Source: Phoronis australis
Taxonomy: Eukaryota; Animalia; Phoronida
Direction: 5' to 3'
DNA length: 64,000 bases
Assembly (NCBI GenBank): GCA_002633005.1
Contig: NMRA01000183.1
Location: 76,426 to 140,425 of the forward strand
The notes under the pieces are model-generated. The model was not told the origin of the DNA and ran no database searches. It saw nothing but the letters and a program-made list of their open reading frames with translations. Each line of letters opens with the position of its first letter. Position 1 is the first letter of the stretch. The translations under genes were made by a program, and so were the position numbers. Positions 52,095-64,000 of this stretch are shown here, piece by piece.

Positions 52095-52190
52095 ATGGGA
52101 AGTGGTTCGAGCCGTCGCGGATCACCACGTGGTCCGTCAGTGGCTGTGGTGGTTGAAGCAACACAAGACGACGTTGGAGATAGCAAGAAG
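52095..52190 (+). CDS. KY-like gene coding exon 1 (MGSGSS myristoylation motif)
   Basis: TTTCAG acceptor at 52086, ATG at 52095, AAG|GTAGGA donor; MGSGSSRRGSPRGPSVAVVVEATQDDVGDSKK. Confidence 0.65.
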
Positions 52191-61100: not shown

Positions 61101-64000
61101 AGATAAGAAGTTTAAACATAATTCTGTACCACGCAAGAATTTTTACGCACTGTCTATCAGTCGTTAGTAGTTTCTTTCCTCAGGACAAGAATTGTACGAT
61201 GACACTTGGCTTAGCTCAAAATCATACTCTGCCACACGGTTTGGTAATTGGCGAAATTATTTTTCACAATTAGCAGAATTAATTAGGAGCACAATGTGGC
61301 AAGATTATACAAAAGTTTCAGGCTGTAAAAGTCAAATTTCTTGCCGGTTTGCATAATTCAAAAACCTGATCGCGTGTACTTTTCACGAACTATTCAAATA
61401 TACTATATAAAAACTTTCGAAACGAAAACTTAAAACATACAAATGTCGCACCCAAGTGGTTATAACGGTCCGATTATCTAGAGAACGATAGCATCAGCAG
61501 CCTGAGGCAATAATTAACTGTGATATACCGGCAAATTTCAAGGTACGCTAACCGATCCAGTTGCCCAATCTCGCCCAGAGAGAGTGTCAACATAGCATTC
61601 TTTTGAAGGTGTCCAGATTAAAACCGCGTTCAGAAGTGTAAAAAGGCGGAGTGGAAGTTTCATTTGATTGTAGGTCTGCAGCTTAAGACTAGCGTTTACA
61701 AAGGCTTCGTAACAGCCGTCTTATGAGTAATTTACCAAACTCGTAAGATCACCATGGGCGAAGAGAGCCAAAACCCACGTTACGTCACTAGATTGTCTTC
61801 TCTAGCAAATAGGGTAGACGTGTCATGTCTGATTTTCGGGGCTGAATATATGCAGGCAGATCAAAGGTCCAACGAGCGTTCACATGTGATTTTTTCAGAA
61901 GGCAGGCTTACCTTTTCAATGGACGGCATGTGAGCGCTTTGTAACGTCGTTTGTGTGTTTCCGCAAAACCCAATCACAGAATATACATAATGACTTTAAT
62001 AACTTTTGTGACGCCCTTGCAGATTTGAACACCGGTATCCGGACCAGAAACATTAAATTGGTTGAGCCAGCCATACAAAAGGCGGCTCGTCACGACGACA
62101 GTGAGTTAAGGAATTACGTGGCCTTAGCACATCGAATGATGGAACAGGTACGCAAAATAGAACGCCTGCGCCACTCCATCTTAAAGTTGAACCAAAAGAC
62201 AATTGCTGAAATTCGCGCCTATAGTCGACCGCCGCCAGCTGTTGAGCAAGTGATGACAGCCTCTTTCCTTCTGATGGGGGAAGAAGAATATGAACTGAAG
62301 GTACGATTAAAAGATCTAACCTGCAACCTGGATACCGCCATAAGTTCTCATAACTTTCGTTGTTCATATTGTACGTTCTTGGTAAATGTACTGAATAATC
62401 GTAAGAAATACCTTTCAGCATTGGACAGTACAATGTACTTTCGTTTATATTTATCGAAACTCTACCAAAGAATTTTTGGCATAGACCTGGGCCAGGTCTA
62501 ACCTTTTTACTAAAAATATAAACTCAAATTTAATTTTGACTGTTTTATTCTAGTTGTGTACGAACTCAAGAAAAGTATCTGTTGAGCAATGGTCGAGTAC
62601 ATGATGTTGTAGTCCTACAAACGTGTATATCTCCTTGTCCTACACTGTATATCTCATTGTCCTACACACGTGTACATCTCATTTTCCTACACACGTGTAT
62701 ATCTCCTTGTCCTATACACGTGTGTATCTCATTGTCCTACACACGTGTACATTTGTTGTGATCTGAGTCATCTGAGTGAAGAACCGACATCACTGCACAA
62801 GGGATATCCCCATAAACACTCCATCCCCCGAAGAAGTAGATCCCGAAGTGTGTAGATGCTGACAGTTCCAATCAGTGGATGATTCACTAGCCTTCTGTTT
62901 CTTCCACAAAGTCTTGATTTTCTGCAAGCAGCCCATCCAACTCCTAGCTCACGAAGTCGTTCCAAATGATGATGTTCCGATTCCTCTTGGTCCTTCTTCA
63001 GCTTCTCCCTGACCATATTCACAATTTCCGGTTTAGCAGGGCACAGCTTCCCTTCTGGTTTTGCTTTCCCAGCCAGCTCATCAGCACGTTCATTCCCCCT
63101 AGCTCCAGCATGGCCTGGGGTAAATATCCAGGTGATCTTTTTCAAAGTCGCCTTTGTTAGGAGCTCAGTCAATTCAACTCTCAAATGCCCACTTTCAATT
63201 TTCTTCAGAGTGCTTTGTGAATCTGTAACAAAGATCAAATGTGCTTGCCGAGTTGTTGTCACCCACTCGAGAGCCTGTGTAATTGCTTCTATCTCCATTC
63301 TCATGCTGGAAGTTGTCATACTGTAAGCTCCCTGCTGTTCCTGCTCTAGTCTGCCATTTACAATCGCTGAGAAACCCCATCCAGATTGTTCTCCTCTTTT
63401 AACAAATCCATCCGAGTAAACAACTACATCTCCATGCCGAGAGTAGTCTTCAATAAGTTGTTGTACACACGTATATATCTCATTATCCTTCACACATGTA
63501 TATCCCATGGGGAGGATAAAATTCTATGCATATCCAAATATTTCTTTACAAGGACTGGAAGTGGATTCAGTGTTTGATGGGCAGAATAGGACCCGATAGC
63601 GTGAAGAAGCGGGTGGCTGATACAAACGTGGACGATGTTCCAATCGAAATTGCACTCCGAGCTCAGCAGATTTATGAAGGGTTTACACTAAACGACGTGA
63701 GAGACGTTAGTGCAGGCGCGGCAGCCTTCTACGTTTGGGTACGTATTGCTCTTTGCCTAGATGATGTTGTTTAATTCAAGTGGCTAATAGATGAAAATCT
63801 GATTAAAAGGTTTAAATATTTTCCTGAAAACCAGCCAAATGAGCTCTAAAGACCTTCTTTTAGAAACTGTCACGGTACTTTTTTGACAAACGCCGGTCAC
63901 CTTGAACTTATATTTTATAGACTTCAGGAATGATTGAAGCTTGCATAAACAACTTCAAGGCCGCCGGAGGAAACCTATTCTCTGTACGACCGAAAACGTG
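52095..64000 (+). CDS. Hillarin/KY/LTD-1-like pseudo-transglutaminase with Ig-like repeats and C-terminal dynein-MTBD-like domain (3' end runs off window, >1380 aa)
   Basis: Phase-consistent GT-AG exons 52095-52190, 53967-54146, 54873-55102, 56085-58039, 58699-59457, 59955-60167, 60816-60983, 62023-62300, 63553-63738, 63921->64000. KY/hillarin signature KVRAIFRWIT...LFAGLCKFAGLKCVIVNGINKSAAYEVG...QWNAIYLNGAWRFVDVFW...NDFFFLTEPEQLIYTHFPNDSQWQLL. Confidence 0.88.
53967..54146 (+). CDS. KY-like gene exon 2
   Basis: TTGTAG| and |GTACGT; 60 codons ending DYPRPLPPSDSRDDICCQTILNSIDDYIFD, joining to APEDL as in hillarin-type W-domain starts. Confidence 0.78.
54873..55102 (+). CDS. KY-like gene exon 3 (start of transglutaminase-like core)
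   Basis: TTTTAG| and |GTGAGT; APEDLLTGSYTNLVKYL...KVRAIFRWIT...HAHLFAGLC. Confidence 0.92.
56085..58039 (+). CDS. KY-like gene exon 4 (TG-like core plus ~4 Ig-like repeats)
   Basis: 1955-nt exon within the 670-aa ORF; TTTACAG| and G|GTATGC. Confidence 0.95.
58699..59457 (+). CDS. KY-like gene exon 5 (hyper-acidic, phase 1-1, His/Glu repeats)
   Basis: TTACTAG| and G|GTATTT; 253 open codons rich in D/E. Confidence 0.72.
59955..60167 (+). CDS. KY-like gene exon 6
   Basis: TTACAG| and G|GTATTC; acidic, then coiled-coil-like EEELEMERIEEENRIAEEAETKK. Confidence 0.82.
60816..60983 (+). CDS. KY-like gene exon 7 (helical)
   Basis: TTTCAG| and A|GTTAGC; RQKKRLTERLQEAMKVRLDVDRLSRAISKFISAGIENDALLAEGKRMLELWTLIL. 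Confidence 0.82.
62023..62300 (+). CDS. KY-like gene exon 8 (start of dynein-MTBD-like domain)
   Basis: CTTGCAG| and AAG|GTACGA; ...ILKLNQKTIAEIRAYSRPPPAVEQVMTASFLLMGEEEYELK. Confidence 0.9.
62612..62752. repeat. 25-bp minisatellite (continues at 63464-63505 beyond the LINE)
   Basis: Unit CCTACACACGTGTATATCTCATTGT, ~5.5 copies. Confidence 0.9.
62753..63463 (-). mobile_element. 5'-truncated non-LTR retrotransposon, RNase H domain
   Basis: ORF with RNase HI motifs VYSDG, MEIEAI, TDSQS, PGHAG.RGNERADELA; ends at TGA with a short CAA-like tail; antisense in the intron. Confidence 0.85.
63553..63738 (+). CDS. KY-like gene exon 9 (dynein-MTBD-like)
   Basis: TTACAAG| and TGG|GTACGT; DWKWIQCLMGRIGPDSVKKRV...FTLNDVRDVSAGAAAFYVW. 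Confidence 0.9.
63921..64000 (+). CDS. KY-like gene exon 10 (partial)
   Basis: TTTTATAG| acceptor; TSGMIEACINNFKAAGGNLFSVRPKT to the window end. Confidence 0.8.

Follow-up and report, generated by a model that had tools for sequence, protein, structure and literature searches.

A pseudo-transglutaminase ending in a dynein-type microtubule-binding domain in Phoronis australis: a possible membrane-to-microtubule tether

What might a protein do whose start resembles that of a lipid-anchored protein, whose middle resembles a transglutaminase and whose end resembles the stalk tip of a dynein? The question is raised by a gene beginning at position 52095 on the forward strand of the window, a 64,000-nucleotide stretch of Phoronis australis DNA (GenBank assembly GCA_002633005.1, contig NMRA01000183.1, positions 76,426 to 140,425). 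By splice-site testing over 50001-64000, ten exons separated by GT..AG introns were found, which together give a reading frame of 1,381 amino acids with no stop, still open at 64000, the stop codon of the gene lying past the window end. The product opens with MGSGSS and continues with a KY/hillarin transglutaminase-like core; four Ig-like domains come next, and an acidic spacer and helical hairpins lead to a tip of the type known from dynein as the microtubule-binding domain (MTBD). An earlier sequence-only reading of this DNA had assembled its protein from MGSGSS, a KY core, Ig repeats, an acidic stretch, helices and a C-terminal domain, all of which are present in the sequence, and had proposed that it links membrane to microtubules. 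Judged from sequence and structural models, the chance that the protein is such a passive tether is about even.

Homology of the tip and conservation of the fusion

Exon 8 alone matches the DNAH2 stalk tip at E 2.9e-4 and exon 9 alone gave no meaningful match and no dynein; detection of the tip needs the whole domain or a profile, not single exons. When a profile of 14 tips was searched against the PDB, all 42 hits at E<=0.01 were dynein heavy chains (best E 4.9e-8; a few have generic or mismatched names, yet are 4,100-4,600 amino acids long), aligned from helix CC1 through H6 into CC2, and the window's own domain scored 171.6 bits on the family profile. The fold was assessed on a model of the tip of the Lingula orthologue P0001 rather than on the window protein's own spliced domain. 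This model (predicted local distance difference test, pLDDT, 93.5; predicted template modelling score, pTM, 0.86) matches the mouse dynein MTBD 3ERR with Z 16.8-17.0 and a root-mean-square deviation (rmsd) of 2.1 Å over 140 aligned residues, unrelated folds reached Z 6.0 at most among 48,161 representatives, and the top four Foldseek rows were dyneins with template modelling scores (TM) of 0.74-0.80. The model lies nearer to low-affinity dynein structures than to the high-affinity 3J1T (Z 17 vs 9), a difference that may stem from bias in the model's training and is given no weight here. Profile, Foldseek and structure comparison all point to the identity that the sequence-only reading had suggested from a residue pattern: by sequence and predicted fold, the C-terminal domain is a dynein-type MTBD homologue.

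With the dynein MTBD (PF12777; PDB 3ERR, 6RZB, 6KIO, 8I3J) the tip shares six helices between two antiparallel helices, as well as the Glu-x-Arg of H1, a Pro-Pro turn, the H3 Trp, the H6 Ser and the CC2 Trp. It differs in the replacement of the H6 Arg, in a short basic insert after H3, in an identity of 13-23% and in its surroundings: no AAA+ motor ring, tail or full-length coiled-coil stalk was found in the 1,381-residue model or in complete orthologues (983-1,159 amino acids), and the flanking helices, about 25 residues per strand in the P0001 model, form a stub of the stalk that is entered from helical hairpins. Axonemal and cytoplasmic heavy chains score alike on the tip profile, which does not distinguish the parent dynein class. 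The 'MTBD-like' motif of TTLL11 was considered as a precedent and rejected, being unrelated to dynein (PMC12366701).

A HMMER search against Pfam MT, proposed earlier as a check, gave a divided answer. PF12777, a model which spans the whole dynein stalk and has a gathering cutoff of 24 bits, had no hit in single window exons and scored 19.3 bits on the Lingula orthologue; it was the profile and the PDB search that found dyneins. A few members of the family pass the cutoff (P0089, for example, at 37.3 bits) and most fall below it, which accounts for their blank annotations: they are currently called uncharacterised, 'kyphoscoliosis peptidase', 'hillarin-like', 'trichohyalin-like' or 'CLCA-like', and one member, from abalone, bears the automatic name 'cytoplasmic dynein 2 heavy chain 1-like'.

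The best match of exon 4 is the Lingula protein LOC106169650 (P0001), whose C-terminal region retrieved 25 proteins, and the tip profile search retrieved 72. Brachiopod and mollusc orthologues are colinear with the window protein end to end; the short isoform aligns with P0001 in one segment at 37.8% identity over 1,110 columns, and for 22 of the 25 best relatives a single BLAST segment begins in the N-terminal portion and extends across the tip. In a tree built on the core and two Ig domains (32 rows, P0059 being excluded for short overlap), the window protein falls in a 15-row clade (100/99) with Lingula proteins, mollusc orthologues and two further representatives. Given these colinear orthologues, the fusion of a KY core with a dynein tip is considered real, and it is conserved.

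A mistaken gene model, in which everything spliced from 62023 onward would be another gene or a dynein pseudogene fragment, is hardly credible. Four RNA runs with the same species label (X1-X4, about 18-19% of each raw run) were mapped onto 51500-64000, and exon reads come from the sense strand at a depth of about 0.1-4.5. Two gene joints only reach the listing threshold, 54146>54873 (3 reads, X1) and 58039>59955 (2 reads in X1 and 3 in X2); the joint of exon 1 to exon 2 is absent from the listed junctions, and none is listed among exons 6-10, including those to and between the MTBD exons, where depth is about 1. The RNA check of exon joining thus covers two joints and leaves those of exons 6-10 unlisted, which is what a wrong model would have in its favour. 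The MTBD-exon joints are backed instead by colinearity with orthologues, while phases and GT..AG ends fit, and an X4 contig spans 62141-62300 with its match ending exactly at the exon-8 donor. The sequence-only reading had named a separate gene from 62023 as what would overturn it; since relatives align through the tip in one segment and the tree places the protein in a clade with them, that alternative is disposed of.

Front half, exon structure and spacer

An MGxxxS-type start is the N-myristoylation consensus, and an N-terminal LIM domain is normally carried by hillarin and LTD-1. The MGSGSS start of the window protein fits the MGxxxS/T motif, as the sequence-only reading had recognised; by sequence, the motif is kept in 61 of 87 Met-starting relatives with core and tip (a set including close orthologues and isoforms) and in 0 of 11 two-core paralogues without a tip. 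The same reading had seen no LIM domain, which was confirmed by a pattern search of the model and the proteins compared with it and by Pfam scans, neither of which gave a LIM match. The architecture of the KY/hillarin proteins, Transglut_core followed by Ig-like_KY domains, is found in the window protein: Pfam Ig-like_KY (PF23265) matches exon 4 at E 5e-56 in 3 stretches, and Transglut_core (PF01841), undetected exon by exon in a core split over exons 3 and 4, matches the colinear orthologue at E 1.5e-9. In the AlphaFold model of P0001 (mean pLDDT 75.7), the N-terminus and the spacer are disordered; between them lie the core and four Ig-like sandwiches, and after the spacer come a long helix, two helical hairpins and the tip.

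Erythrocyte protein 4.2 (EPB42) is a myristoylated membrane-skeleton linker, which links to the spectrin skeleton and has no dynein tip. It belongs to another transglutaminase subfamily than the window protein. As a catalytically inactive scaffold of the transglutaminase family (PMC10318531), it is a functional analogue. KY, hillarin, LTD-1 and Cyk3 share with the window protein the core and the KY-type Ig-like domains that follow it; what sets the window protein apart is its N-myristoylation motif, its dynein tip and its lack of a LIM domain. In human KY the catalytic triad is Cys225-His267-Asp282 (PMC13434911). The corresponding places in the window protein, set by motif and spacing without alignment to KY itself, are held by Thr157, Ala200 and Asp215 (spacing 43/15 vs 42/15 in KY), so that, unlike KY, it has neither the Cys nor the His of the triad; none of 89 relatives with core and tip has His at its place, and Cys occurs in none at the 157 column. 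With catalytic Cys and His missing, the core is regarded as a pseudo-enzyme, and the 'dead transglutaminase' proposed earlier is borne out; yeast Cyk3 is likewise without the catalytic Cys (PMC3718969). The solved structure nearest to the core-plus-Ig part is Chlamydomonas FAP246 of the central apparatus C1b (PDB 7N6G, 7SQC; E 6e-11, also the top Foldseek row), a protein described with leucine-rich repeat (LRR) and guanylate-kinase domains (bioRxiv 2021.06.16.448709), the match being limited to the core region.

All ten exons lie on the forward strand. Exon 1 (52095..52190) holds the start codon and, in amino acids 1-32, the MGSGSS consensus followed by basic residues, as read from the sequence and the motif kept in orthologues; exon 2 (53967..54146, amino acids 33-92) encodes a disordered linker and a Pro-rich lead-in to the core, the BLAST match with the Lingula orthologue beginning at amino acid 65. 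The first half of the core is in exon 3 (54873..55102), with Thr157 (55065-55067) standing where the catalytic Cys would be, and the second half in exon 4 (56085..58039), with Ala200 for His and Asp215 kept, followed by the four KY-type Ig-like domains at about 56521-56814, 56920-57186, 57286-57549 and 57661-57909, boundaries that are approximate and come from alignments. Exon 5 (58699..59457) is an in-frame acidic exon of 253 amino acids, and exon 6 (59955..60167) carries the end of the acidic spacer and the start of the long helix. A helical hairpin repeat is encoded by exon 7 (60816..60983), as seen in the orthologue model; an alternative donor in this exon near 60918 was ruled out, orthologues aligning gap-free up to the donor at 60983. 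Exon 8 (62023..62300) encodes the second hairpin, a short CC1-like helix and MTBD helices H1-H2, with Glu1263 at 62208-62210, and exon 9 (63553..63738) helices H3-H6 and the start of a CC2-like helix, with Asp1344 at the place of dynein's H6 Arg. In exon 10 (63921..64000, cut by the window end) are a short CC2-like helix and a tail nearly identical to that of the Lingula orthologue.

The sequence-only reading had counted an acidic spacer of about 330 amino acids. An open frame of that kind exists, the spacer being 344 amino acids with exon 5, and the reads seen give a form of 91 amino acids without it: all five junction reads across the spacer skip the 759-nucleotide exon, so that the long spacer belongs to a possible long isoform. 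Exon 5 is 34% Asp plus Glu, with a net charge of -73 and a 30-nucleotide tandem repeat at 59280-59398. Its open frame exceeds chance (0 of 2000 shuffles were stop-free) and is in frame on both sides; sense coverage is weak and confined to X1, no read joints into the exon are listed, and it matches none of 275 proteins compared at E<=1e-3. Exon 5 is best read as a cassette exon.

Several other features were seen in the window. Intron 8 contains an RNase H open frame on the reverse strand (62768-63523; Pfam RNase_H E 3e-15), a retrotransposon piece to which reads from diverged copies map and which is flanked by a 25-nucleotide tandem array at 62612-62752. A repeated element in intron 7 (61186-61560) attracts many reads that are 90-95% alike, on both strands and with loose ends. 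Farther upstream are a reverse-strand open frame at 40080-40526 matching Pfam ISK_Channel (a KCNE-like potassium channel subunit; E 1.4e-6, above cutoff) and an assembly gap of N of about 0.9 kb at about 23880-24780.

Other carriers of the tip and of its fold

Searched against 1.84 billion representatives, the tip profile found 1,966 at E<=1e-3, 748 at 1e-10 and 103 at 1e-30. Architectures were surveyed in the best 150 of the 1,966 (representatives clustered at 50% identity, the lower ranks probably including true dyneins), 30 of which were looked up by name. Ig-like_KY is present in 51 of the 150, and in 127 the tip ends at most 60 amino acids from the C-terminus. An MGxxxS/T start was found in 27 of 50 Met-starting KY-type representatives and in 10 of 93 Met-starting non-KY ones, and an upstream hydrophobic segment in 12 of 99 non-KY representatives, including CD20-like, CLCA-like, EGF and VWA membrane proteins. 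The segment is strong in amphioxus CD20-like tetraspans and CLCA-like proteins and in a Saccoglossus EGF protein; other carriers are Styela VWA proteins, and proteins of sponges and oysters that combine an EF-hand with a coiled coil. The survey of KY+MTBD fusions that had been suggested for this gene places the fusion in molluscs and brachiopods, with a KY-type carrier of the tip also in Macrostomum (P0184), and the tip also behind other fronts. Named carriers come from sponges, a flatworm, a nemertean, a brachiopod, molluscs, a hemichordate, amphioxus and tunicates, and no vertebrate, arthropod or nematode carrier is among the 30 looked up by name.

In P0047, P0056, P0044, P0096 and P0134, CLCA-like, CD20-like, EGF and VWA proteins of amphioxus, Saccoglossus and Styela, the tip lies beyond a predicted transmembrane segment. 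Five short mollusc proteins of 266-353 amino acids (P0071, P0073, P0080, P0103, P0126) contain hardly anything besides an MGCGxS start, followed by helical hairpins and the tip, and are proposed as the minimal form of the putative tether, the one most readily tested. P0157 (ENA), which has a Hemingway/CFAP97 domain, carries MTBD-like repeats of a different, more dynein-like type, five in tandem and near-identical, and P0029, an amphioxus EF-hand-type/coiled-coil carrier with a reverse-transcriptase frame in mid-protein, is probably an annotation that swallowed a retroelement. In the ESM Atlas, Pfam MT is annotated on 50% and 14% of the members of mollusc clusters (scores 0.88-0.89), which serve as a lead only. 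A planarian 'ky' RNA interference phenotype (bioRxiv 2020.09.11.293936) and an oyster 'KY' transcript could not be tied to the subfamily with KY core and tip.

The structure search with the Lingula tip model also returned chains that are not dyneins: two from radial spokes (7JTK_C, Z 12.8; 7JRJ_I, Z 7.2), one each from bovine sperm (9FQR_Xl, Z 11.2) and Trypanosoma (9E5C_2e, Z 8.2), and Toxoplasma 9YA2_L (Z 10.2, rmsd 3.0, 125 aligned). Their Z of 7.2-12.8 is under the tool's caution line for helical proteins and above the unrelated rows, and none of the five has a detectable sequence match to the tip (none in 59 hits, E<=10). We tentatively take 7JTK_C to be RSP2 and 9FQR_Xl to be EFCAB5. The chain 9YA2_L has 162 residues and is numbered to 1457; from length and numbering we infer that it is ICMAP2 (1,678 amino acids, 10% resolved). 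ICMAP2 sits on the intraconoidal microtubule with an 8-nm periodicity and holds two microtubules together, binding, in distinction from the tip considered here, as a dimer between protofilaments (PMC12819142). The solved structures thus probably offer a precedent for microtubule binding by a motor-less copy and, also probably, precedents for copies that may not bind. The dynein likeness of these chains goes unremarked in passages of PMC12819142 and PMC11779644, whose supplements may note it.

Tether, scaffold or axonemal component

As a passive tether, the protein would be myristoylated at its conserved MGxxxS start and so anchored at the membrane, and its C-terminal tip, motor-less and on a stalk stub, is predicted to grip the microtubule lattice at a fixed affinity, the two helical hairpins possibly holding the stub in one register, so that ATP would not switch its affinity in the way it does in dynein. 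The dead core together with the four Ig-like domains may serve as a rigid scaffold to which other proteins of the cortex bind; KY acts at Z-discs with filamin C, which it binds (PMC13434911), and KY/hillarin relatives at cleavage furrows with septin or Rho1, D-hillarin binding septin (PMC3718969). The acidic spacer would act as a flexible leash whose length, 91 to 344 amino acids, is set by the cassette exon, and the basic C-terminal tails of many orthologues (6-8 Lys/Arg in the last 15 residues in 11 of 15 inspected) may add grip on tubulin's acidic tails.

Yeast dynein forms six salt bridges via K3117, E3122, R3124, R3152, R3159 and R3201 (PMC7042235). The H1 Glu (yeast E3122, Dictyostelium E3390) pairs with alpha-tubulin R402/403 (PMC7042235, PMC4298687) and the H6 Arg (yeast R3201) with alpha-tubulin E415/E420, the two pairs being central (PMC4298687). 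These contacts were mapped by hidden Markov model alignment to 6KIO onto the 149 domain rows that cover 100 positions or more, out of 161 found, once 11 shorter ones and the window row had been set aside. The E3122 position is Glu in 149/149 rows and is Glu1263 in the window protein, and the R3124 position is Arg or Lys in 117/149 and kept in the window protein. At the R3152 position the window protein has Lys, at K3117 and R3159 a basic residue one position later, and the residue preceding the R3201 position is Arg or Lys in 82/148 rows. The basic insert after H3, specific to the family, has a GKTG motif with Gly in 136/146.

A number of observations weigh against a tether of this kind. Arg or Lys is found in only 49/149 rows at the R3152 position and in 22/149 at K3117 (Gln in 86), the R3159 position is Gly in 84/149 (with Arg or Lys at the next position in 112), and the R3201 position is Asp or Glu in 66/148 and Asp in the window protein, while the net charge of the domain core, +2 at the median, is -3 in the window protein. 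The invariant H1 Glu could be kept for folding, and the occurrence of the same fold in non-dynein axonemal and radial-spoke chains implies that the fold need not contact tubulin. On the membrane side, only 54 of the 150 representatives have an MG start or a hydrophobic segment upstream (many of the rest being short, maybe fragments), the crude hydropathy test was positive for 3 of 51 KY-type proteins as well, the EF-hand/coiled-coil class has neither feature, and the 11 tip-less controls are orthologues of one gene. The linker proposed by the sequence-only reading is strengthened at its membrane end, by the tip standing behind other predicted membrane anchors, and weakened at its microtubule end by the partly kept contacts, the negative domain and the radial-spoke folds.

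Two other functions have to be weighed. The tip may have been repurposed as a protein-binding module off tubulin, the protein being a membrane-bound scaffold of the actin, septin or muscle cortex like KY, hillarin and Cyk3. This is doubtful, though the better placed of the two: the charge reversal in H6, the weakly basic or acidic surface, the MTBD-like folds in radial-spoke chains and the Z-disc and cleavage-furrow sites of the characterised relatives named above would all agree with it, and the basic GKTG insert suggests a new binding surface. It has to contend with the H1 Glu-x-Arg/Lys pair, which is among the best-kept features from sponges to tunicates, with a profile that finds nothing but dyneins in the PDB, and with a domain that stays at the free C-terminus across unrelated architectures.

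Myristoylation is also a signal for ciliary targeting via UNC119/ARL3, and a structural protein of the axoneme or cilium, bound through its tip to doublets or to complexes such as the N-DRC (nexin-dynein regulatory complex) and not necessarily bridging to the membrane, is the unlikely second alternative. The named carriers are all animals with motile cilia; yet no vertebrate is among the 30 looked up by name from the best 150 of 1,966 representatives, though vertebrates have motile cilia too, and a membrane tether accounts better for the transmembrane carriers of CLCA, EGF and tetraspan type. An axonemal place would suit FAP246 being the only solved relative of the core-plus-Ig part, and the non-dynein structural matches of the tip being all ciliary or microtubule-bound chains; a dynein MTBD can, moreover, contact the N-DRC (PMC11779644).

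For the tether a wider origin is tentatively proposed, with somewhat less than an even chance: early animals may have detached dynein's grip from its motor and made of it a portable C-terminal anchor, joined to lipid anchors, to tetraspans, to membrane proteins of CLCA, EGF and VWA type and to scaffolds derived from dead transglutaminases in sponges, spiralians, hemichordates, amphioxus and tunicates. These would form an undescribed class of tethers on dynein's own footprint, able to compete with motors, and in the present gene the cassette exon would tune the membrane-to-microtubule distance. The parts are known and their combination appears to be undescribed; a full-text search, most subscription papers and supplements lying outside it, found no description of a KY/hillarin protein with a dynein tip or of motor-less dynein tips in membrane proteins.

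The central claim is directly testable with a 150-residue domain and one point mutant. The dynein MTBD has so far been studied as a switchable part of a motor and, if the proposal is true, a natural family with a fixed stub would show its grip uncoupled from ATP. Membrane-microtubule linkers are, to our knowledge, poorly known in spiralians and invertebrate chordates, and the proteins described here would then be candidates for such links, at the cell cortex or the ciliary membrane, in these animals.

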